13,932 nucleotides of DNA. It comes from Myxococcota bacterium (GTDB lineage: Bacteria > Myxococcota_A > Polyangia > HGW-17 > JAJRWW01). The first letter of the stretch is position 1, and every line of letters begins with the position of its first letter. The notes beneath the pieces are model-generated. The model ran no database searches. It saw only the letters and a list, made by a program, of their open reading frames with translations, and was not told the DNA's origin. Shown one piece after another: positions 2,426 to 13,504 of this stretch. The position numbers and the translations under genes were made by a program. The stretch lies in assembly GCA_024276595.1 (NCBI GenBank), contig JAJRWW010000627.1, forward strand, positions 1 to 13,932, written 5' to 3'.

Positions 2426-3232
2426 CTAGTACTCGGTCTCCTTGCGAGGCTTGGTCACCGCGTCGATCATGGGATCGTATCCGCGGCGGCGGCGGGGGGA
2501 GTTGAGCTTGCGGCCCTCCAGCACCTTCTGGCGCATCCCGTTGTGAAAAAGCACGATGCAGAAGTTGCCGTAGATGGTGGACTTGTCTACCGCCCACATT
2601 CGGACGTCCTTGGCGCCTATCCACTCCACGTGGTGGAGACGGGGCTGACCGGCGAGGTCCTTTTTGAACACCGGCTGGCCCGCGCCAAAAGCCTTTATTA
2701 GCTTGCCCAGAAACTGCGGGAAGGTGAGCCCCTTGTAGTTCTTGTGGTCCGCGTTGAAGGCGATGAACTGCTTGTACAGCTTTCCGTTGTGAAAGAAGAA
2801 GAAGCGCTGCTGCTCCTTTTCCAAGAAGACGACGATGGACTCCTGGTTTCTGTGCCGAAACTGATCGTCCACGATGGACGAGTCCCAGCCGCTGCGCCTG
2901 CCGGTGAACTTGAAGTAGCTCTTTTTCACCTTCAGGAGCTTCTGCCTGAGCTCCTTGCGGAGCTTGTCCTGCTTGCGAGGTGAGGTCCTGGCCTGCCGGA
3001 TGCGCTTCAGATAGACCTTCCTCAGGTTGGCGGTGAGGAGCTTGATCACCTTGGAGGGGCCCAGGCCCCACTTGTACTTGCCAGTTAGCGCAGCAATGGC
3101 GGCGGCGGCTCGCTTGTTCACCTTTACCTTCTTTGTGACCTTTCGGCGGCGGCGCCGGCGGCGAGCATCGGCGTCCGTGGTCCAGGCCAACAGGAGGATG
3201 GATGTCAGGAGCAATACGGATACGCGTCTCAT
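2426..3232 (-). CDS. secreted, extremely basic (Lys/Arg-rich) protein of 268 aa; mature N-terminus RRRRRRRK; function unknown
   Basis: The internal ATG at 3232 is preceded by GGAGGGA. The N-terminus MRRVSVLLLTSILLLAWTTDADA is a classic Sec signal peptide with an AxA cleavage site. Two internal motifs are similar to each other: FFFFHNGKLYKQF and CIVLFHNGMRQKV. I recognise no family. The 96-aa upstream extension in the six-frame ORF is rejected. Confidence 0.6.
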   Translation of the reverse strand: MRRVSVLLLTSILLLAWTTDADARRRRRRRKVTKKVKVNKRAAAAIAALTGKYKWGLGPSKVIKLLTANLRKVYLKRIRQARTSPRKQDKLRKELRQKLLKVKKSYFKFTGRRSGWDSSIVDDQFRHRNQESIVVFLEKEQQRFFFFHNGKLYKQFIAFNADHKNYKGLTFPQFLGKLIKAFGAGQPVFKKDLAGQPRLHHVEWIGAKDVRMWAVDKSTIYGNFCIVLFHNGMRQKVLEGRKLNSPRRRRGYDPMIDAVTKPRKETEY

Positions 3233-3410: not shown

Positions 3411-4223
3411 TCAACGGCCCCGCGCCACCCGTGTCTTTCGCGCGCGGGGACGGTAGCCACGCCTGGCCACCCCACGCTTGAGATCCAGATAGGGTGTCCG
3501 GGAGTACATGGCCTCCTCACCCGGGCCGCCGTAGTCTATCCAGAAGGTCTTCTTTGCCCGCACGTCCAGGTGCATGTGGAAGCCGTTGGGGTAGTAGCCC
3601 ACGCCCACGTGGGAGTAGTGCCTGAGCAGGTAGTTGCGGATCCGAACGTTGGAGATGGCGTCGAAGTTGAAGTCGATTGCGTGACCTGTCACGTGCTTGC
3701 TGGTCTTGAGCCGGGCCACCACCTTGGGGCGGTTCCCGGAGAAGACCGACACCTGGGGTTGTCCGAAGTGCAGCCACAGGTCGTAGAGAATCACCAGCAG
3801 GCGCCAGTGTATCTTCTGGGCGCGGCCCGTGTGGGAGCAGCGCATGAACCGCGCGAAGCGCCTGAAGGCGGCCGCCCGGAGCTGCCCACGGGAGTCGTAG
3901 AGGCGGATCCTGATGGCCTCCCGGTTGTGCACGTGGTAAAGGGGCATGGAAGGCAGCCGCAGCAAGGCCCTGGCCCCTCTCCTCCCTCTTCTGCTCCGAC
4001 CCTTTCGCCTGGTCGCTCTCCTGGCCCTGCTCGTGATCCTGCGCACCGATCTCAGGCGCCTTCGATTGCGCAGGCGCCTCGCCGGACGCAGGCTCCGGTG
4101 ACCTCCCTCCCTTCGGACCCGCCGCACCTGGCGACCGCCGGGCACCGCCACGGACACGGCGGGCTCAGCCCCCAACAGGAGCAGCAGGCAGGGGAGCAGC
4201 AGGTGCATCTTCGGGGCTCTCAT
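3411..4223 (-). CDS. MepK/YcbK-family peptidoglycan endopeptidase (DUF882, peptidase M15A) with a Sec signal peptide and an Arg-rich region of about 55 aa, 27 of them Arg
   Basis: The ATG at 4223 is preceded by GGAGGA. The signal peptide reads MRAPKMHLLLPCLLLLLGAEPAVSVA. The catalytic region reads LYHVHNREAIRIRLYD...SGNRPKVVARL...KHVTGHAIDFNF...GVGYYPNGFHMHLDVRAKKTFW. This matches the YcbK/DUF882 consensus (HTGE..., SGYRSPxxN, SxHxxGxAxDF, GGVGYYPxSxFVHxDTGxxRxW). Confidence 0.8.
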   Translation of the reverse strand: MRAPKMHLLLPCLLLLLGAEPAVSVAVPGGRQVRRVRREGGHRSLRPARRLRNRRRLRSVRRITSRARRATRRKGRSRRGRRGARALLRLPSMPLYHVHNREAIRIRLYDSRGQLRAAAFRRFARFMRCSHTGRAQKIHWRLLVILYDLWLHFGQPQVSVFSGNRPKVVARLKTSKHVTGHAIDFNFDAISNVRIRNYLLRHYSHVGVGYYPNGFHMHLDVRAKKTFWIDYGGPGEEAMYSRTPYLDLKRGVARRGYRPRARKTRVARGR

Positions 4224-4400
4224 GGTTCCTCCAGGGATCTCCAGATTGGATGGACCACCGGAACCTGTCAATTTTCTCGCCCCCTTTTGCCCATCACGGG
4301 CATTGAACGGGCGGTGAAACTGGGGGCCATCTGTGCTATACAGCCTCTAGCACGTCGGTTTGGCGATGGGCGAAATTACGATCCTGAAGGAGGAATCGAG
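4224..4400. promoter_or_regulatory. divergent promoter region between the M15A peptidase gene (minus strand) and the acidic lipoprotein gene (plus strand)
   Basis: 177 bp of lower GC (ttttctcgcccccttttgcccatcacgggcattgaacg..., gcgaaattacgatcc) are flanked by two oppositely oriented starts. Each start has a GGAGG RBS. Confidence 0.35.
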
Positions 4401-5366
4401 ATGAGAACTAAGCTAGTAGCAGTAATGGCGGCCTTCACCCTGGCCCTCTCACTGGGAGCCGCGGCCGGCTGCAGCGACGACGACGTTGGCGAGATCTGCG
4501 ACAACGGCGTGGACGACGACGGCGACGGCCTCGCGGATTGCGACGACCCCCTCTGCGACATGGACGAGGCCTGCCAGCCCGTCTGTGGCGATGGCGTGGC
4601 CGAGGGTGACGAGGTGTGCGACACCAACGACCTGGCCGGCAACACCTGCGCATCCGAGGGCTTTGACGATGGCGACCTGGCCTGCAACGCCACATGTGAC
4701 GGCTTTGACGACAGCGCCTGCTACGACTACTTTTGCGGCGATGACGCGGCCGAGGGTACAGAGGAATGCGACGGCGTGGACCTGGCGAACACGACCTGCG
4801 AAGACCTCGGCTACCTGGGCGGCGACCTGGCCTGCGACACGGACTGCTTCTTCGACGAGTCCGGCTGCTTCGACACCGTGACCTGCAGCGACGCCAGCTT
4901 CATGGGCACAGGGGGCCAGGCCTTTGGTGGCGACAGCCAGAACGGCAACTACGACTGGTTATACCAGGAGCTGGTGGACCTGGGTGACGGGGCCACCTGG
5001 CTGCTCTCCATCGAGCTGTACGGCGACTTTGTAAATGGCGGAGGCGGAATCACCACGGGCGCACACGACGTCTCCGTGCCCCCCGAGGACAACTACGCCA
5101 CCTGCGCCTACTGCGTGCTCATGCGGCGCTGTGCAGACGCCCAGTGCAGCAACGTGGAGGCGGTCTTCTTCCCCACCGCCGGAACCCTCCAGCTCGATGT
5201 CCTGTCTCAGGCCGGCATGGGCTCGTTTCAGGGCAGCATCTCCGACTTCAACTGGGAGGAGGTCACCATCGACTCGTCCACCTACGAGTCCACCGCCGTG
5301 GTGGGCGGTGACTGCTTCAACCTGACCGCGGCATACACGGTGGACGCCACCGTGGACGCCATGTAG
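4401..5366 (+). CDS. acidic Cys-rich lipoprotein of 321 aa with Myxococcus-type cysteine-rich repeats and a C-terminal beta-rich domain of unknown function
   Basis: GAAGGAGG lies 7 nt upstream of the ATG. The signal peptide MRTKLVAVMAAFTLALSLGAAAGC ends in a candidate lipobox. An Asp-rich CDNGVDDDGDGLADCDDPLC module is followed by tandem repeats: VCGDGVAEGDEVCDTNDLAGNTC...GDLACNATCDGFDDSAC and FCGDDAAEGTEECDGVDLANTTC...GDLACDTDCFFDESGC. About 25% of residues are D or E. The 5' 277-codon extension in the six-frame ORF runs antisense to the peptidase gene and is rejected. Confidence 0.75.
   Translation: MRTKLVAVMAAFTLALSLGAAAGCSDDDVGEICDNGVDDDGDGLADCDDPLCDMDEACQPVCGDGVAEGDEVCDTNDLAGNTCASEGFDDGDLACNATCDGFDDSACYDYFCGDDAAEGTEECDGVDLANTTCEDLGYLGGDLACDTDCFFDESGCFDTVTCSDASFMGTGGQAFGGDSQNGNYDWLYQELVDLGDGATWLLSIELYGDFVNGGGGITTGAHDVSVPPEDNYATCAYCVLMRRCADAQCSNVEAVFFPTAGTLQLDVLSQAGMGSFQGSISDFNWEEVTIDSSTYESTAVVGGDCFNLTAAYTVDATVDAM
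4581..4868 (+). repeat. internal tandem duplication encoding two Cys-rich modules of about 46 aa inside the lipoprotein gene
   Basis: The repeat is visible at protein level: xCGDxxAEGxExCDxxDLAxxTCxxxGxxxGDLACxxxCxFDxSxC appears twice. It is degenerate at DNA level. Confidence 0.7.
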
Positions 5367-5436: not shown

Positions 5437-8400
5437 CTACTGTGTGTCCAGCCCCTTGAGGGCGTCCAGCAGCTCACGGAGCTGGTTCAGCTCTCCGAGG
5501 GCCTGCTCGATCATCGCGTCCACGGCGGGATCCACCACGCCGGCCTTCTTCAAGCGCCGGTCGATGGTGCGGAGCGCGTCCACAACCCGGATGTCCATGG
5601 AGGGGGAGAGGGAGCGGAGCTGGCTCCGGATGGTGGCAGGCAGGGAGAAGCTGTGCTTTCCCCCGGGGGGAGAGGGATGGCCTGCCAGCTCTGGCTCCAG
5701 GGACTTGGACGCGAGCTGGGACCGACCCGCAGCCGCCGCAGGAGATGCCGGGGCAGCGCCCGGCGCCTGGGGGGGCGCATGGGGCCGCATGGGGCCGGCC
5801 GCCGGGGGTGGGGAGACCGCGCCCGCGCTGCTCCCTCCACCCCTGCCCGCCTGGGCGTACCGCTCCATGGCGGCCACCATGGCCTGCACCCCCTGGCTGA
5901 GCGCTGCGAGCTGCTCGGTCACCTGCCCGACCGCCTCCGTGTCCGCAGCCGGCCGCCGCGACTCACCCTCCGAGCCTGCGCTCGGGGCCCTCCGGCCAGA
6001 GAGGCTCTCCTCCAGCTTCTCCAGCAAGAGCGCCTGGATCTGGTTGGACTCTGCGGTCTTCTCCCTGTCCGCCTCAACCGCCCTGGAGGCGTCCTGGATC
6101 CGCTGGCTGATGTCGCCCAGCTTCTCCGAGACGAGGCCCAGGGTGCCGGTGACCCTTGTCACCGGGTCGTCCTCGGCGCCCCCCATGGAGCGCTGCCTGC
6201 GGAAGCCCTCCTTGATCTCCTCCCAGCGGGCGGCCTGCTCCTCGGTCATCCGATTCCGCAGCTCGGCCAGCTTCAGAAGGTTCTGCTCCGCGCCGGTGGT
6301 CAGGGACTGGGCCTCGCCCTGGTAGTGGTCGTCCAGCAGGCTCTCCAGCTCGGAGTCGTTCATTACGGGCAGGATCTTCTCCGCCAGCTTGTTCATGTTG
6401 CGATAGCTGCCCTGGAGCTGGAAGCGCGGCTCCGTGCGGTAGGCGTCGTCCTGGGCGGCGGAGTAGATGTACTGCTGGTTGACCGAGAGCAGGACCCGCT
6501 GCACCCGCTGCAGCTTCTCCAGGACGGAGAGCACATCCTTGAGCTCCACCGACGAGTAGGGGTGGCTGAGCTGGTCCGCCTGCACCTCCTCACCGGCGGC
6601 CATGCGCACCAGCTTGTACAGGTCCTCTGGGTCCCGCGTGGTGAGAGGCGACAGCACCGGGTTGGAGGTGAGGGCGTTCTCCATGTACGACAGGGCGAAT
6701 GCCTCCTCGCGGCCCTCGAGGATGTCACCCAGGTTGTAGGTGTCGGCGCGGTTGGCCAGCATGTCAGGGATCTGGAACTTCTCCCCCGACTCGGTGTAGG
6801 GGTTGCCAGCCATGCACACAGCGAACTTCTTTCCCCGGAAGTCGTAGGTGCGGGTCTTTCCTTTCCACACCCCCTCGATGCGTCGCTGGGCGTCGCAGAG
6901 GGAGATGAACTTCTGCAGCAGCTCGCTGCTTGTGTGCTGGATGTCGTCGATGTACAGCAGCACGTTGTTGCCCATCTCAAAGGCGAGGTTGATCTTCTCC
7001 ACCTCCTGGCGCGCGGTGGCGTTGGGAGCCTCGGAGGGGTCCAGGGAGAGGACCTGGTGGCCCAGAGCGGGGCCGTTGATCTTCATGAACACCAGCCCAA
7101 GCCTGTTGGCGATGTACTCCATGAGGGTGGTCTTGCCGTAGCCAGGGGGAGAGATGAGCAGCAGCATCCCCATGAGGTCCGTGCGCTTGTTCTTGCCCAG
7201 GGCACCTATCTGCTTGGCCAGGTTGTCGCCGATCAGGGGGAGATACACCTCACTGATGAGCTTGTTGCGCACGAAGGAGCTCATCACCTTTGGCATGTAC
7301 TCCGAGATCCGGAGCGCCTCCCGCTCCCGCTCCAGCAGGTCGTGCCGGAGCTCCCTGAAGCGCTGGAAGGCGACGACTCGCTCCCGGCGGAAGGTGCCCA
7401 GGCGGGTCATGAACTCGTCCAGCCTCAGGTGGAGCGTCCGGTTTACGATGCGTGGATGCTGGCCCAGCAGGCCCTCCACGTCCGCAGAGGTCAGAGCGTG
7501 GCTCACCGAGCGCTGCACCTTGGACTCGGTCAGGATGAGCATCACCGCCTCCCTCACGGCGTGGCGGTTTGCTCTGACAGCCTCGTCGCTGGCGACATCC
7601 ACGAAGGCGCCAAGCCAGGCCTCCGCAAGCTCGAAGCGCTCCTCCACGCTGTCGGCGAGGAGCCGGAGATCGTCTGTGAACCCACGGTCGTTCTTGGTCT
7701 TCCGCAGGTGCTTCATGAAGTCCTTGCGGAGCTGCTCCGCCTCGGCGCTGATGACGAGCTCCACCGGGTCGGACGCCAGCTCCTCTGCCAGGTACTGGCC
7801 GGCGAAGCGGGCCTCCTCCGGGTCCAGATGGATGGACTCGGCCTGGAAGAAAGCGGAGATCGCCTCCGAGAGCTCTCCGTACAGCTCCGCGTGGGCGGCG
7901 CTGGGGGCGAAGGTGTCCCGCAGGCGCGCGAGGGAGCGCGCCCGGCGAGTCCAGCGCTCGGCGCGCTCCCTGTCCTCGTAGTGCGCCCAGAACAGGTTGG
8001 CCGCTGCCCGGGAGGAGGAGGAGAAGCGCAGCAGCCCGGCGGACTGGTACAGGGTGAGCAGCTTCCCGAGGATGAGCGCCGCGTCCGCGTCGTGCAGCCC
8101 TCGTTCATAGCCCTCGTCGTAGGCCTCGCCGGCGTACTGGCGCACGATCTCCAGCAAGTCCGTCTCGGTGGCCGCGGCTGCCCGGAGCTGAGCCAGGCTG
8201 TGGTTGCCCCGCTCCAGCTCGGCGTCCGCCAGGATCTTGGCGGCCAGGTACTCCCCACGGTACACATCGGCGGTCTCGCTCACTAGCTGCTGATCCCACA
8301 GGTCCCGGGTCTGGGCAAACTCAGGGTCGTCGATTCTCTGGTAGAAGTCGGTGCCAGTGAGGTGCAGGTACATCTCACCGTCCCGGGGCACCATGGTGAG

Positions 8401-11040
8401 ATCCAGAGGCTGAGTGTTTACGCTGAAGCTGTGGCGGCCCAGCTTGATGGAGTCGCCACCGTCGGTGAAGATGTCCTCCCTGTCCCGCAGCCCCCTGGCA
8501 GCATCCTGGATGGCCCCCTTCAGCCGGGCCTCCACCTCGTCCGCCTTTACCGAGTCTCCCAGCTCCCGGAGGTCTGAGGAGAGATCCTTGAGCTTTGTGA
8601 CCATGGGGTCGGAGGCAAAGTAGGAGTTGAGCTCGTCCACGTCGGCGAAGGTGGCTGCGCGGCGGCTCACCGTCTGGAGGATTCGCTCGGCGGCCTGCAT
8701 CATGTTCCCGGCGCGGCGCTGGCGCGCGTCCAGGAGCTGCTGCTTCTTGGTGGAGAAGGCCTTGTAGACCTCCTCCCGCTTGGTGGAAAGATCCTCGATG
8801 AACTGGTCGAACTCGGCGTAGCGGCTCTCCAGCTCCTCCAGCGCCATCATGAGGCGCGACAGCTCGGAGTCACACTTGGCAGGGGTGTCCGCCAGACCCA
8901 GGGCGCTGGTGACGTTCTGGGAGAAGACGTTGAACTCGGCACCGAACTCGGCCACCGCCTCCGTGGAGAGCAGCTCCTTGCGACGGTTCTCCAGCAGCGC
9001 CCTGCAGCGGTTCAGGCTCCCGAGCACCTCCGAGATGCCCTCCAGGATCTGCGTGCGCTGGGTAGAGTCCTCGAGCTTCAGCCCCCCGACAACCTCCGTG
9101 AGCATCTGGAGCTGCTCGTTCATGGTCTCCACCCGCTGGCGCAGGGGCTCGGCCTCGGCCACCTTCTCGATGGCCTCGCTGGAGCTCACCAGCTCGGCGA
9201 TCTTTTCGTGGTAGGGAGCCAGGGCATCCTCCCCCAGCAGAAACCTCACGGTGTGGCCGGTGAGCTTTTCGAACTGCTCCACCACCCGGGCCTCCAGGCC
9301 ATCCACCCGGGCGACGTCAACGTGACGGAGATTGCGCAAGGTGATGAGCTGCCCGCGCTGCTTGCGCAGGGCCGCCAGCCCCTCCACGAAGGCGTCCGAG
9401 GTGGTCCAGGAGTCGGGCTTGAGGTCCCTCAGCAGCTCCGCAAGCTGCTTCTCCGCGCGGTCCACCGCCTGACCGGACTGGCGCCGCACCTCCTCCACCT
9501 TCTGGAACTCGTCCACGATGAGGCTGGCGGTGTCCTTTATCTCCTCCAGGGGTTTGCGGAGGTTGCCCACCTCATCTCGATCCAGCCAGTAGTGGTCGTC
9601 GAGCACCCGGGACACGGCAGCCACCAGGTCCTCGTAGATCTGGACCGTGGGCCTCTGCTCCTCCACGGCCCTGCGAATGGAGAGCATGTCCGAGATGCCG
9701 CGCACCAGGTCGGCGTTGCCGATCTTTTCCAGGTATGAGCCCGAGGAAGGGGCCCTGGCGGCAAACTCGTCACTGGTAAAGGGGGTCTGCCAGATCTGCA
9801 TGGGGTGAACCCGCGTGGGCTCGTCGCTCTCGGTGCGGAAGACCACCAGCTTCCCGTCGGGGAACAGACCAAAGCCGTTGCACCTGATCGGGTTCTGCAG
9901 CTCCTTGCGGATCATGTTATAGGGCAGCAGCACCGACCTGCCCTCCATGCGGCTGTGGAAGATGTACAGCACGTCCTCGCCGTTGGGCGAACGGATCATG
10001 CGCATGAACTCCAGGCTCTCGGTGCTCCCTTCGAAGGTCTTGGTCTCTCCCGACTGCAGGTGGTAGCCGCCGGGGAAGATGACCCCGTGGTCCTCGGGGA
10101 GCTGAACGCAGGCTTGACCGATGGCGTCTATGCGCTCGGCCCTCTTGGTGCGGGTGTTAAAGAGCAGGTATCGATAGTGCTCCTCCCGGTAGGGGAGCAC
10201 CTTGAAGAGCACCAGCACCCCAACCCGAGCGTAGAGGATCTCTGCGTCGTCCAGCGACTGGTCCGGGTCCTCCACCGGCTCCCGGTAGACCCCCAGGCCG
10301 TCCTCGGTGTTGTCCTCCACCTTGATGGTGAGGTCGCCGCCCACGGTCTCGATGAACACCTCGTCGTCGATGGAGATGTGGGGGTGACGGCCCGGCACAT
10401 GCTGCTCCCTGGTGGTGGGGACCCACTCGAAGTCGTGGGAGGGGGGGAAGACCTGCTCCCGCTCCCCCCTGTTGTCGATGTAGGTGACCTCGCTGCCATC
10501 GGGGGACACGGCCCACTGGAAGACCCTGATGTCAGAGACGGTGGCGCCGGTCCTGAAGACAGCCAGCAGCTTTTGACCCACGCGCCGGAGCTGCATGAGC
10601 TCGGTGTCCTTGTAGAACCGATACAGCTCGGAGAACTCGCTGATGAACTTGGGCGCCGCCAGGAAGGAGGCATCCACCGCCTCCAGCTTGAACCCATCAT
10701 CGGTCTGCTCGAAGGAGCGAAGAGAGAGCACATCCGAGACGTCAGTCTCCTTCTTCAGGCCCAAAAAGGCGTTGTAGCCAAAAAGCAGCCGGTCTCCCAC
10801 CTCCACGATGTCCCTGGGCACGCAGTTGTTCTCGGTGCGGATGCGCTCGTTGCCAATGATGGCCATCTGGGTGCCACCAAAAACCTTGATTCGCTCGGCG
10901 TTGAGGGCCTGAGCCTTTTCCCCCAGCCCCCTGGCCTGCTGCACCAGGCGGTCCCTGATGATCTCGTAGGTGCCCTGCTCGATGGCAGCGGCGCCCTCCG
11001 TCTCCTCCACGACGCCGGCGGCTTTTTCTTCAGCGGCCAT
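5437..11040 (-). CDS. giant coiled-coil AAA+ ATPase of about 1,867 aa. Layout: N-terminal globular domain (about aa 1-430) unassigned; coiled-coil-rich region (about aa 430-1250); AAA+ module (about aa 1250-1450); Pro/Ala/Gly-rich linker (about aa 1683-1795); conserved C-terminal helix
   Basis: The single 5.6-kb ORF has strong GC3 bias. The ATG at 11040 is preceded by GGGAGAGG; an in-frame GTG at 11043 is an alternative start. The P-loop LLLISPPGYGKTTLMEY is encoded at 7126-7152 and Walker B VLLYIDDIQH at 6943-6960. A downstream segment, AVCMAGNPYTESGEKFQIPDMLANRADTYNL, resembles sensor regions of MoxR/AAA_5 ATPases. No protease, nuclease or vWA motifs are seen. Confidence 0.85.
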   Translation of the reverse strand: MAAEEKAAGVVEETEGAAAIEQGTYEIIRDRLVQQARGLGEKAQALNAERIKVFGGTQMAIIGNERIRTENNCVPRDIVEVGDRLLFGYNAFLGLKKETDVSDVLSLRSFEQTDDGFKLEAVDASFLAAPKFISEFSELYRFYKDTELMQLRRVGQKLLAVFRTGATVSDIRVFQWAVSPDGSEVTYIDNRGEREQVFPPSHDFEWVPTTREQHVPGRHPHISIDDEVFIETVGGDLTIKVEDNTEDGLGVYREPVEDPDQSLDDAEILYARVGVLVLFKVLPYREEHYRYLLFNTRTKRAERIDAIGQACVQLPEDHGVIFPGGYHLQSGETKTFEGSTESLEFMRMIRSPNGEDVLYIFHSRMEGRSVLLPYNMIRKELQNPIRCNGFGLFPDGKLVVFRTESDEPTRVHPMQIWQTPFTSDEFAARAPSSGSYLEKIGNADLVRGISDMLSIRRAVEEQRPTVQIYEDLVAAVSRVLDDHYWLDRDEVGNLRKPLEEIKDTASLIVDEFQKVEEVRRQSGQAVDRAEKQLAELLRDLKPDSWTTSDAFVEGLAALRKQRGQLITLRNLRHVDVARVDGLEARVVEQFEKLTGHTVRFLLGEDALAPYHEKIAELVSSSEAIEKVAEAEPLRQRVETMNEQLQMLTEVVGGLKLEDSTQRTQILEGISEVLGSLNRCRALLENRRKELLSTEAVAEFGAEFNVFSQNVTSALGLADTPAKCDSELSRLMMALEELESRYAEFDQFIEDLSTKREEVYKAFSTKKQQLLDARQRRAGNMMQAAERILQTVSRRAATFADVDELNSYFASDPMVTKLKDLSSDLRELGDSVKADEVEARLKGAIQDAARGLRDREDIFTDGGDSIKLGRHSFSVNTQPLDLTMVPRDGEMYLHLTGTDFYQRIDDPEFAQTRDLWDQQLVSETADVYRGEYLAAKILADAELERGNHSLAQLRAAAATETDLLEIVRQYAGEAYDEGYERGLHDADAALILGKLLTLYQSAGLLRFSSSSRAAANLFWAHYEDRERAERWTRRARSLARLRDTFAPSAAHAELYGELSEAISAFFQAESIHLDPEEARFAGQYLAEELASDPVELVISAEAEQLRKDFMKHLRKTKNDRGFTDDLRLLADSVEERFELAEAWLGAFVDVASDEAVRANRHAVREAVMLILTESKVQRSVSHALTSADVEGLLGQHPRIVNRTLHLRLDEFMTRLGTFRRERVVAFQRFRELRHDLLEREREALRISEYMPKVMSSFVRNKLISEVYLPLIGDNLAKQIGALGKNKRTDLMGMLLLISPPGYGKTTLMEYIANRLGLVFMKINGPALGHQVLSLDPSEAPNATARQEVEKINLAFEMGNNVLLYIDDIQHTSSELLQKFISLCDAQRRIEGVWKGKTRTYDFRGKKFAVCMAGNPYTESGEKFQIPDMLANRADTYNLGDILEGREEAFALSYMENALTSNPVLSPLTTRDPEDLYKLVRMAAGEEVQADQLSHPYSSVELKDVLSVLEKLQRVQRVLLSVNQQYIYSAAQDDAYRTEPRFQLQGSYRNMNKLAEKILPVMNDSELESLLDDHYQGEAQSLTTGAEQNLLKLAELRNRMTEEQAARWEEIKEGFRRQRSMGGAEDDPVTRVTGTLGLVSEKLGDISQRIQDASRAVEADREKTAESNQIQALLLEKLEESLSGRRAPSAGSEGESRRPAADTEAVGQVTEQLAALSQGVQAMVAAMERYAQAGRGGGSSAGAVSPPPAAGPMRPHAPPQAPGAAPASPAAAAGRSQLASKSLEPELAGHPSPPGGKHSFSLPATIRSQLRSLSPSMDIRVVDALRTIDRRLKKAGVVDPAVDAMIEQALGELNQLRELLDALKGLDTQ
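5777..5796 (-). repeat. perfect 10-bp tandem duplication (gcatggggcc x2) inside the low-complexity linker coding region
   Basis: Read directly. It encodes GPMRPHAPP on the minus strand. The unit length is not a multiple of 3. Confidence 0.85.
6693..7293 (-). other. AAA+ ATPase core (Walker A and Walker B) of the giant protein
   Basis: Walker A is the GPPGxGKT-type SPPGYGKTT. Walker B is hhhhDD (LLYIDD), about 60 aa downstream. An MAGNP motif lies about 45 aa after that, as in MoxR/dynein-like AAA_5 domains. Confidence 0.7.
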
Positions 11041-11043
11041 CAC

Positions 11044-11171: not shown

Positions 11172-13346
11172 CTAAAGCTCGGCCTCGTCCACGCCCAGCT
11201 TCTTCGCCTCGGCGAGGAGCGACTGGAGCTTGGACTTGCCGGCATCGTCGGTCTTGAGCATCAGCTTGCCCAGCAGCCCAGAGAGGGTGAGGTTCTGCAG
11301 GTCGGCAGGCGAGATGGCTGAGTTTGAAAGCACCTGCTTGAGGTCCTCGGGCAAGTTGGCGCTCCTGTCCAGGTAGTCCTTGAACGCGGTGGAGGCGGCG
11401 CCGGAGCCCTTGAAGAAGCCGTCCACGCTCTTGCCGAGGGTCACGGAGTTCACGAGCCGCTCGAAGAACAGGTTCTCGCCGCCAACGATGTCGATCTTGG
11501 CGGTCTTGAGGGCCTCGGCCACGATCTCTGCCTGGGAGCGAGCGACCTCCTTGCGGGCCTCGATGCCCTGCAGCTCGATGGCGCGCTCGTTCTCCAGGCG
11601 CAGGCGGTACTCCTCGTGCCCCCGGCTGGCGTCGTCCAGGGCGCCCATGGCCCGGGCCTTCTCCTCCAGTCCGGAGGCCTCCGCCTCCAGCTTCAGTCGG
11701 ATGGCCTCGGCCTCGGCCATGCCCTGCTCCCGGGTGACCACCGCGGTGGAGAGCCCCTTCTCCTTGGAGACGACTGCCTCGGCCATGCCGTGCTTCTCCG
11801 TGGCGCCAGCGTCCACCTCCTTGACCTTGGCCCTGGCCTCCCCCTGCGCCTCGATGCCCCTGGCCTCCGCCTGCATCTTCTCCAGCAAGATCCGCGCCTC
11901 GGCCATGCCCACCTTCTCGATGGCGTCGGCGTCGGCGTTCTTCACGGTGACGGTGGCCAGACCGGCGGCGGCGGCCTCCGCCTGGGTCCCCTCGGCCAGG
12001 CGCATCTTGGCCTGGGCCTCCTTGTCGGAGACCTCGAGCTGTGCGTCGGCGAGCAGGAGCCTCTCCCGGGCGCGGAACTTGGCCGCCTCCTCGGCCGCCT
12101 CGGCCGCCTTGATGTCCTTCACCAGCTTCTCCTGGGCCTGGGCCTCGGCGGTGATGATGGTGGCCTCCTTGCTGCGCTTGGCCTCCTCCACCAGCCGCAA
12201 GGCCTTTATTCGCTCCTCCTCCTCGGCCTGGGTGCGCTCCACCGCCAGACGCTCTCGGATGACGTCGGCGATCTCCTTCTTCTCCCTCTCCACCTCTTTT
12301 TGCTTGGCTATGGTGCCCAGCTCGGTCTCCCGCTCCCTGGCGATGGCCTCCAGGGCCCGGTCCTTCTCTACCCGCTCGTTCTCCACTGCCACGACCCGCT
12401 CGCGGTTCTTCATGGCCACCGCCACCTGGCGGGCCTTGTTCTCCTCGTTGATGGCGATCTCCTCCTCGGTCTTGATGCGCGCCAGCTCTGCCTTGCGCCT
12501 CTCCTCTGCCTGGACCTTCTGGGTCTCTGCCGCCTCTCTGGCGCGCACGACGGCTATCTCCCGAGCCTGCTTCGCCTCGGCGTCCGCCTGCTGCCGCTCC
12601 AGCTCCAAGATGGCCTCTTTGGCCTCCACGTTCTGCTTGGTGATGAGCTTCCGCTCATTGTTCTCAAAGTCGTTGGTGCGAACGTTCTCGGACGCGGTCA
12701 GATCGGTGATCTTCCGGATGCCCTGGGCGTCCAGCACGTTCTTGGGGTCGAGGGACTCCAGGGGGGTCTGCTCCAGGTAGTCGATGGCGGCGTCCTCTAG
12801 CTGGTAGCCGTTGAGGTCCACGCCGATGACCTCGATGATCCGCTTGCGGAAGTCCTCCCGCTTTGTGTAAAGGTCCACGAAGTCGAGCTGCTTGCCCACG
12901 GTCTTGAGGGCCTCTGAGAACTTGGCATTGAAGAGCTCCTCCAGGGCCATCCGATCCGACGCGCGGGCGCAGCCAACCGACTGCGCCACCTGGATGACGT
13001 CATCGGTGGAGCGTCCGACCCGGACATAGAAGGTGACCTTGATGTCCGCCCGGATGTTGTCCTTGCAGATCATCCCATCCTTGCCCCGCCGGTCGATCTC
13101 TATGGTGTTGAGGGAGATGTCCATGATCTCCGCCTTGTTGTACACTGGCCAGACGAAGTGCCCGGTGAAGGCGACCTTCACCTTGCCCCGCGGGCTCGAC
13201 ACGATGAGCACCTTCCCCTGGGGCACCTTGCGATAGAAGCCCGCCAGGAACGTGGGAATGAGCAAGATCAGCGCGAGGATGGCGACCCCAACGATCACTA
13301 GCAGCGACATCAGAGGGCTGAGCCCCATGAGGGCAAAAACAGACAT
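11172..13346 (-). CDS. flotillin-like SPFH/Band 7 membrane protein (YqiK/FloT family), 724 aa. It has an N-terminal TM segment, an SPFH domain, and an EA-rich coiled-coil flotillin region of about 370 aa
   Basis: The ATG at 13346 is preceded by GAAGGAGG. The N-terminus MSVFALMGLSPLMSLLVIVGVAILALILLIPTFLAGFYRKVPQGKVLIVSS...VKVAFTGHFVWPVYNKAEIMDISLNTIEIDR...IRADIKVTFYVRV is a typical flotillin start: hairpin/TM, then SPFH beta-sheet. Long AEAxxA/ERxK repeats follow. I reject the 22-codon upstream extension (MTPPPPRRQRPP...). Confidence 0.9.
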   Translation of the reverse strand: MSVFALMGLSPLMSLLVIVGVAILALILLIPTFLAGFYRKVPQGKVLIVSSPRGKVKVAFTGHFVWPVYNKAEIMDISLNTIEIDRRGKDGMICKDNIRADIKVTFYVRVGRSTDDVIQVAQSVGCARASDRMALEELFNAKFSEALKTVGKQLDFVDLYTKREDFRKRIIEVIGVDLNGYQLEDAAIDYLEQTPLESLDPKNVLDAQGIRKITDLTASENVRTNDFENNERKLITKQNVEAKEAILELERQQADAEAKQAREIAVVRAREAAETQKVQAEERRKAELARIKTEEEIAINEENKARQVAVAMKNRERVVAVENERVEKDRALEAIARERETELGTIAKQKEVEREKKEIADVIRERLAVERTQAEEEERIKALRLVEEAKRSKEATIITAEAQAQEKLVKDIKAAEAAEEAAKFRARERLLLADAQLEVSDKEAQAKMRLAEGTQAEAAAAGLATVTVKNADADAIEKVGMAEARILLEKMQAEARGIEAQGEARAKVKEVDAGATEKHGMAEAVVSKEKGLSTAVVTREQGMAEAEAIRLKLEAEASGLEEKARAMGALDDASRGHEEYRLRLENERAIELQGIEARKEVARSQAEIVAEALKTAKIDIVGGENLFFERLVNSVTLGKSVDGFFKGSGAASTAFKDYLDRSANLPEDLKQVLSNSAISPADLQNLTLSGLLGKLMLKTDDAGKSKLQSLLAEAKKLGVDEAEL

Positions 13347-13504
13347 GTCCCGGACCTCCTTCGTCCCAAGAACCCGTGGGGGTCTTTGTCGTCTGGGCGG
13401 GGGTGGCGTCACGAGGAGCCCGTCCCCTGCTGGGATCTACGCCTCTCCCCGCCCCGCTGTCAAGGCCAAGTAGCTGCGGGGAGAGATCCCTGGCGGGGCC
13501 GAGG

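Follow-up and report, generated by a model that had tools for sequence, protein, structure and literature searches.

The subject of this analysis is the gene at positions 3411-4223 (minus strand) of a 13,932-nt stretch of Myxococcota DNA (contig JAJRWW010000627.1 of assembly GCA_024276595.1), hereafter called the window, which encodes a DUF882/M15 peptidase preceded by a long Arg-rich segment. The protein belongs to a new clade of DUF882/M15 wall peptidases, in which an ordinary catalytic part is combined with a disordered module defined by charge only, and which is accompanied by a co-evolving partner of similar design. The best explanation we can offer, with roughly an even chance of being right, is that the product is a wall peptidase that leaves the cytoplasm and is held at the anionic envelope through the electrostatic attraction of its disordered polycation. 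Searches of the literature on DUF882/YcbK, on Arg-rich wall hydrolases and Myxococcus, and on disordered cationic periplasmic hydrolases retrieved no description of this module. The features of the gene are as follows (here and below, P numbers denote protein entries and L numbers related DNA loci).

4228-4232, minus strand: Shine-Dalgarno-like GGAGG, 4 nt 5' of the ATG (read from the sequence).
3411-4223, minus strand: complete coding sequence of the polycationic DUF882/M15 peptidase, 270 amino acids (aa) plus stop (open reading frame (ORF) list and translation).
4137-4223, minus strand: predicted Sec-type signal peptide, aa 1-29 (hydrophobicity and a crude -3/-1 rule; the cleavage site is heuristic only).
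3969-4133, minus strand: polyarginine tract, aa 31-85 (residue counts; predicted to be disordered).
4071-4097, minus strand: RSLRPARRL, aa 43-51, the best-conserved motif within the linker (kept in P0002-P0004, P0007, P0009, L001, L011, L012 and L019).
3966-4034, minus strand: TSRARRATRRKGRSRRGRRGARA, aa 64-86, a purine-rich insertion (AGG/AGA/GGG codons) that only the window protein has (seen when it is aligned with its closest homologues).
3504-3947, minus strand: DUF882/Peptidase_M15_2 catalytic domain, aa 93-240.
3693-3695, 3672-3674 and 3570-3572, minus strand: Zn ligands H177, D184 and H218, respectively; the SGxR motif occupies aa 162-165.
3414-3503, minus strand: basic C-terminal tail, aa 241-270 (10 R, 2 K, 1 D; net charge +11).

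The ATG at 4223-4221 is the likely start codon, since GGAGG lies 4 nt upstream of it; the surrounding frame is open to a TTG at 4271, and the stop codon occupies 3413-3411. A public database entry of 270 aa (P0001) is 100% identical to the translation. The hydrophobic N-terminus, MRAPKMHLLLPCLLLLLGAEPAVSVA, stands ahead of the Arg tract and resembles a Sec-type signal peptide, with the n-region MRAPK (which contains no twin-arginine motif), a Leu-rich h-region, and a c-region with small residues at -3/-1. The peptide quoted in the original prediction, with 27 Arg in 55 residues directly after the signal peptide, corresponds exactly to aa 31-85 (27 R, 1 K, 1 E); at an Arg frequency of 0.115, as in the catalytic domain of the same protein, the probability of finding at least 27 Arg among 55 residues is 6e-12. 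The full basic linker encompasses approximately aa 30-92 (3948-4136, minus strand) and has a net charge of +28, with a K/(K+R) ratio of 0.03 versus 0.23-0.52 in the other proteins of the window. In the AlphaFold (AF2) model the predicted local distance difference test score (pLDDT) is <50 over residues 10-87 and ~76-89 across most of the catalytic domain. The basic character goes beyond what had been predicted, as the C-terminal 30 residues are also basic, a feature present in all close homologues; the mature protein has a net charge of +53 and a calculated isoelectric point of ~12, and the catalytic domain alone has a net charge of +14.

The database set contains 17 close homologues (54-100% identity), of which 12 are annotated with a start at Met93 (MPLYH...). 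These models, the invariance of Met93 in the alignment of the 17 proteins and the atypical codon usage of the tract would all fit a scenario in which translation truly starts at Met93 and the Arg tract lies outside the functional protein, the upstream frame being a GC-rich chance ORF or a low-complexity remnant. AGG/AGA account for 14 of the 27 Arg codons of the tract (52%), compared with 5 of 29 (17%) in the rest of the gene and 17-20% for the larger genes of the window. This enrichment is shared only by the window and L002 and is not a family-wide trait; in the window it is due to the private purine-rich insertion at aa 64-86. We took the DNA of 13 related loci from genome and metagenome collections (the metagenome scan contributed only three loci) and read the upstream frame, and in 13 of 13 a hydrophobic N-terminus followed by a basic linker is encoded. 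In every locus read, the genome with 40% GC included, the frame runs without a stop for 90-230 codons and begins each time with a signal-like segment; in clade members the linker comprises 65-175 aa, with 26-46% Arg+Lys and only 0-6 acidic residues. The open frame, the signal-like start and the basic linker are likewise present in L019 and L020, and the distant L016 has a short version of the linker (~30 aa). In L005, whose DNA has only 40% GC, the linker is Lys-rich (27 K and 9 R), which indicates that the charge itself has been conserved and that the residues are not simply a product of GC-driven Arg codons; it is the charge, rather than the sequence, that the linkers of the clade have in common.

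Selection on the linker is also indicated by a dN/dS (ratio of nonsynonymous to synonymous substitution rates) of <0.4: the Nei-Gojobori estimates for the four closest loci, rough because synonymous sites are near saturation, are 0.22-0.40 for the linker and 0.06-0.12 for the catalytic domain. Close members share the peptide pattern RRVRRVR...RSLRPARRL...RRRLREVxRI. Additionally, nothing resembling a Shine-Dalgarno sequence precedes Met93, in contrast to the GGAGG before the ATG at 4223, and other polycationic members (P0042, P0127) have I, V or L in place of Met93. We consider a start at Met93 very improbable; as far as comparison of related loci can tell, the Arg tract is a real, translated part of the protein and not an artefact. 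A frameshift or the use of an alternative frame was considered as well, as frame +2 of the tract encodes a stop-free, acidic, Pro-rich peptide, and was ruled out, because it is the Arg frame that has been conserved in homologues, in agreement with the flanking frames. An origin of the tract as an artefact of GC content or codon usage is ruled out by the Lys-rich linker at 40% GC. No tandem repeats were found in the DNA of the window tract. Homologue models truncated to a start at Met93 include P0005, P0006, P0008, P0010-P0017, L019 7518-8000 and L020 7391-7870, and in L020 a spurious 159-aa ORF has been called over the polycationic region in a different frame. Gene callers thus systematically truncate this family, so that the signal peptide and the linker are hidden from databases and the enzymes would be mislocalised as cytoplasmic.

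A profile search over 1.84 billion cluster representatives yielded 3,817 relatives with E <= 1e-3, of which 169 have E <= 1e-30. Ninety-eight listed representatives retain an N-terminal extension that begins with a hydrophobic segment; the highest net charge within 40 aa is +14 or more in 26 of them and between +10 and +13 in another 23. This defines a sizeable unannotated clade of wall peptidases, in which about half of the representatives with intact N-termini are polycationic. With +22 on the same 40-residue scale the window protein is near the top of the range, though not unique, and P0032 and P0042 possess linkers of >200 aa with 76 basic residues. Many members exhibit the motif (D/N)R(F/W/Y)P(P/A)M at the junction between the linker and the catalytic domain. 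Tandem peptide repeats within the linkers of L001 (KPRRLH, four copies, ~5900-6000) and L020 (RRGKPKARRA, three copies, ~7800-7950) indicate that the polycation grows by local duplication. All named genomes with close relatives are uncultured metagenome-assembled genomes (MAGs) assigned to Myxococcota, Polyangia or "Deltaproteobacteria"; judged from these sequences, the clade has so far been seen only in uncultured Myxococcota, in which the insert is conserved, in agreement with the suggestion that it could be lineage-specific. P0100 (437 aa) has an unusual layout, with a DUF882 domain, a poly-Lys/Arg linker and a second DUF882 domain behind a single signal peptide.

The catalytic domain was identified with confidence, as predicted originally: PF05951 (DUF882/Peptidase_M15_2) matches aa 93-222 with 42.3 bits (cutoff 27), the zinc ligands are intact, and PF08291 (Peptidase_M15_3) is matched as well (31.2 bits, cutoff 23.2). 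In its fold the window protein belongs to the LAS/M15 group. Residues S162, G163, R165, H177, D184, H218 and D220 are the same throughout the clade and also in E. coli MepK; with the SGxR and metal-ligand residues thus preserved, the enzyme looks active. The designation "MepK-type" holds at the level of the superfamily only: against the MepK equivalog model NF053624 the window protein scores 34.8 bits, under the curated cutoff of 185, its identity to MepK is 29%, and by sequence comparison it is not a MepK orthologue but is nearer to proteins that combine LysM repeats with DUF882. The segment FWIDYGGPGE (aa 227-236), located past the HxD motif, aligns with the FWxDYxxPG extension of these LysM relatives, which MepK does not have. 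The phage endolysin family phrog_894 is matched weakly by the catalytic domain (E 6.5e-09), and no PDB chain was matched by the window protein at the sequence level.

No LysM match was found in the window protein at E <= 0.1. The sequence comparison places the polycationic linker in the position of the LysM module of the sister group, so that in this clade a charge-only disordered region stands as the non-catalytic module in place of a folded wall-binding domain. P0120 and P0136 are hybrids with the order signal peptide, LysM (confirmed by Pfam), polycation and DUF882; as LysM precedes the polycation, the latter accompanies in these proteins an extracytoplasmic wall-binding domain.

The peptidase gene is followed by a second conserved gene.

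2426-3232, minus strand: conserved partner, 268 aa, 178 bp 3' of the peptidase gene (synteny).

The partner has a predicted signal peptide ending in ...TTDADA, followed by RRRRRRRK at predicted mature positions +1 to +8. Its predicted structure consists of a helical hairpin and a beta domain (AF2 pLDDT 84.5) with a weak resemblance to the YdcD double-wing/DUF4309 fold, and no family match was found in Pfam, NCBIfam or PHROG. The scan for promoters and terminators, otherwise uninformative, revealed no terminator-like site between the two genes. The partner has at least 168 homologues; in nearly all that are full-length, a basic cluster comes immediately after the signal peptide, R6-R10 in close homologues and KKK or KGKAK in distant ones. 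The partner adjoins the DUF882 gene in the window and in L001, L002, L011, L012, L019, L020 and L016/L017 (39% identity), and the most distant homologues are not adjacent to a DUF882 gene. Peptidase and partner thus make up a two-gene module with a shared signal-then-polycation design, one component of which is of unassigned family; the partner probably goes to the same place as the enzyme and works with it or controls it.

Analysis of the genomic neighborhood revealed that in L016/L017 the pair is located between MutS and a class A penicillin-binding protein (PBP), with a SPOR protein nearby (the order in L016 1432-9476, and also in L017, is SPOR protein, MutS, DUF882, partner, class A PBP). 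In L020 (4696-9827) MutS is again upstream, followed by DUF882 and the partner, and the recurrence of this order suggests an old chromosomal neighborhood. In the divergent subclade L005/L007/L013 a gene for an mpl-like UDP-MurNAc:tripeptide ligase lies directly 3' of the DUF882 gene, with a gap of 0-3 nt (L005 6562-7968, L007 2670-4082, L013 1002-1481; TIGR01081 350-364 bits, just below the cutoff of 388.7). A conserved 390-aa secreted protein is encoded divergently upstream in L005-L007. Taken across loci, the neighbors comprise the partner, a lipoprotein, a DUF3686 AAA ATPase, MutS, class A PBP, the SPOR protein, mpl and TamB, and no phage, secretion-system, toxin or polymorphic-toxin neighbors were found in any locus examined. 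The gene context points to a housekeeping function and not to predation. We also considered that basic post-signal regions could be widespread in these genomes; of 39 signal-like ORFs from the window and some related loci (a small sample), only those of the peptidase family and the partner have a strongly basic one.

Some neighboring genes of the window deserve a separate mention. The plus strand carries at 4398-5366 a divergent gene for a lipoprotein (signal ...GAAAGC) with Asp/Cys-rich repeats and a sub-threshold match to NF033662 (acidic double-disulfide repeat; 25.7 bits versus 41). On the minus strand, 5437-11043 encodes a 1,868-aa protein with DUF3686, DUF7902 and AAA ATPase domains, and upstream of it, at 11172-13412, there is a gene for a 746-aa membrane-anchored coiled-coil protein, flotillin-like by eye, with no family match. 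The latter two appear to be a pair of large genes unrelated to the peptidase.

We propose that the gene encodes a zinc-dependent DUF882/M15 peptidoglycan peptidase, made with a cleavable Sec-type signal peptide, which would act outside the cytoplasm on the producer's own wall; by analogy with MepK the bond cleaved would be of the L,D-type. The disordered linker, together with the basic tail, could form a sequence-independent electrostatic tether to peptidoglycan carboxylates, phospholipid head groups or lipopolysaccharide (LPS) phosphates, and would thereby take the role that the sister group assigns to its LysM repeats. Enzyme and partner may then constitute a housekeeping module for wall remodelling.

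Export appears likely on indirect evidence, namely the signal-like N-termini with small residues at -3/-1, the periplasmic location of the relatives and the existence of LysM-polycation hybrids. The hydrophobic segments of the family are strongly hydrophobic and short (~10-14 residues); helix breakers and small residues at -3/-1 come after them. Several observations nevertheless weigh against the proposed export and tethering. The cleavage sites come from a home-made combination of hydrophobicity and the -3/-1 rule that is permissive and that places a site in 46 of the 49 polycationic representatives. In most family members the first basic residue lies between +1 and +3; over +1 to +20 the median net charge is +5, and in the window protein the first 20 mature residues carry +7, contrary to the norms for E. 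coli Sec substrates. The concern raised in the original prediction, that such a charge is hard to reconcile with Sec translocation, is a legitimate one: Allen et al. found Arg to be rate-limiting for transport through SecYEG of E. coli in vitro and Sec substrates to be depleted in Arg, and they note the use of poly-basic stretches to argue that positive charges pass with difficulty (PMC9110029). As Arg is the slowest residue to pass SecYEG, efficient export is not expected for a Sec-type signal followed by 27-76 basic residues. The twin-arginine translocation (Tat) route offers no ready way out and was rejected, since RR is absent from the signal peptide of the window protein and a crude RR pattern picks out only ~10% of the family, the same fraction as among non-polycationic members. 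The divergent L003-L007 have no basic n-region before the hydrophobic segment, so that the positive-inside rule would favor the opposite topology. Finally, the amphipathic periodicity of the linker is not significant (the maximum hydrophobic moment of 0.78 is reached by 8.6% of shuffled sequences), and an amphipathic or membrane-helix mode of action is thus unsupported.

The most direct alternative is that the protein is not exported at all: following the positive-inside rule the hydrophobic segment would insert N-out/C-in or stall, the polycation would be placed on the cytoplasmic face of the inner membrane or bind nucleic acid or polyphosphate, and the M15 domain would act on muropeptides in the cytoplasm, for instance by shortening tetrapeptides to tripeptides to supply Mpl, in the manner of LdcA. 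The net charge of +28 directly C-terminal to the hydrophobic segment, the difficulty of passing Arg-rich sequences through SecYEG, the entire lack of a basic n-region in L003-L007, and the abutting mpl-like gene in L005/L007/L013 are what this scenario would lead one to expect. However, the short hydrophobic segments with their helix breakers and -3/-1 residues resemble cleavable signals and not anchors, basic n-regions are present in most close relatives, in P0120 and P0136 the polycation is preceded by a LysM domain, which is extracytoplasmic, MepK and the nearest relatives are wall enzymes of the periplasm, and the linkage to mpl is limited to one subclade, so that we regard a cytoplasmic enzyme as unlikely. 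The original prediction had instead envisaged a tract that targets prey envelopes, as in some artilysins. On this reading the protein would be a predatory lysin, secreted or vesicle-borne, whose polycation destabilises the LPS of the prey and so opens the way for the peptidase to the prey wall, in a natural counterpart of the engineered Artilysins, and the partner would be an immunity protein or inhibitor. The lineage is indeed Myxococcota, phrog_894 is an endolysin family, however weak the match, and a polycationic peptide joined to a wall hydrolase matches exactly the Artilysin design (PMC4161244). Yet in place of phage, secretion-system, toxin or polymorphic-toxin genes, the loci contain the conserved partner, MutS, class A PBP, the SPOR protein and the mpl-like ligase, and the pair has the appearance of a stable, single-copy chromosomal module, located in some lineages beside MutS, class A PBP and the SPOR protein. 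Moreover, the partner bears the same polycation, for which an immunity protein would have no use, linkers that span 100-200 aa far exceed the size of membrane-active peptides and are not amphipathic, and a predatory lifestyle is undocumented for these MAGs. The context thus speaks against a predatory role, which we consider quite unlikely.

The linker might also serve in regulation and not in targeting. It could be a pro-region or an autoinhibitory tail covering the active site until it is removed or the partner displaces it, or else an entropic spacer that determines how far the enzyme reaches across the periplasm. Variation in length between ~30 and 200 aa and growth by tandem peptide repeats are typical of spacers, and the conservation of both the junction motif and the partner gene is consistent with regulation; but neither a spacer nor a pro-region needs a polycation, yet charge is the only property retained between 40% and 68% GC. 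In addition, as the catalytic domain is itself basic (+14), electrostatic masking by a cationic tail is unlikely, and this explanation as a whole is improbable. A somewhat different possibility, though a doubtful one, is that the enzyme and the partner (R7 at mature +1 to +7) share an undescribed feature for envelope sorting or export. These bacteria might routinely pass dense poly-Arg through SecYEG, which would contradict the rule derived from E. coli, or a signal peptide with an immediately following polycation might constitute a targeting or retention code that co-localises both proteins, for instance at the periplasmic face of the inner membrane, in a wall zone or in vesicles. Such a code would need a lineage-specific export route or helper; the proposal, made in the original prediction, that export proceeds by an unusual route or with a partner is still a speculation. 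The main interest of the family lies in this export paradox and in the possible shared sorting code, for it provides a natural test case of whether and how Sec-type signals carry dense Arg or Lys tracts, which are predicted to be the slowest step of secretion.

Among characterized proteins, the obvious comparison for the proposed tethered wall peptidase is MepK (YcbK) of E. coli and Salmonella, a peptidoglycan L,D-endopeptidase for mDAP-mDAP (3-3) cross-links, which belongs to the same Pfam family and is 29% identical across 139 aa (E 3e-10). Both share the SGxR motif and the H, D and H ligands, and both are N-terminally targeted envelope enzymes (in the case of the window protein, by prediction). 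MepK differs in its size of 182 aa and in having a twin-arginine signal (...NRRKLLAL) with the domain starting ~9 residues past it, without a linker or a tail; the statement that housekeeping MepK has no polycationic module is therefore correct for the E. coli protein. The window protein has instead a Sec-like signal without RR, a 62-aa polycation, the additional C-terminal FWIDYGGPGE segment and the basic tail. MepK is a Tat substrate, and a version with a Sec signal fails to complement (PMC8262268).

The nearest outgroup is formed by uncharacterized LysM-DUF882 proteins from Myxococcota and other bacteria (P0018-P0020, L008-L010; 35-39% identity, E ~1e-19), which share the catalytic core, the FWxDYxxPG extension and the layout of a signal, an N-terminal non-catalytic module and DUF882. 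They differ in having one or two LysM repeats instead of the polycation, and in the members checked (L008, P0018-P0020) the linkers and tails are acidic. More remote are VldE from Streptococcus pneumoniae (a LysM protein with an M15-like L,D-endopeptidase domain, PDB 9flh) and the Zn DD-peptidase from Streptomyces (M15A, PDB 1lbu), both with 10-16% identity and without a polycationic module.

Artilysins are engineered proteins built on phage endolysins and applied from outside, and their tags are reportedly short, about nine residues. They resemble the proteins described here in the covalent joining of a wall hydrolase to a polycationic peptide (PMC4161244). Here, in contrast, the polycation is natural, extends over 55-200 aa and follows a predicted signal peptide, and the hydrolase that bears it is a DUF882 enzyme encoded on the chromosome, in surroundings that point to housekeeping.

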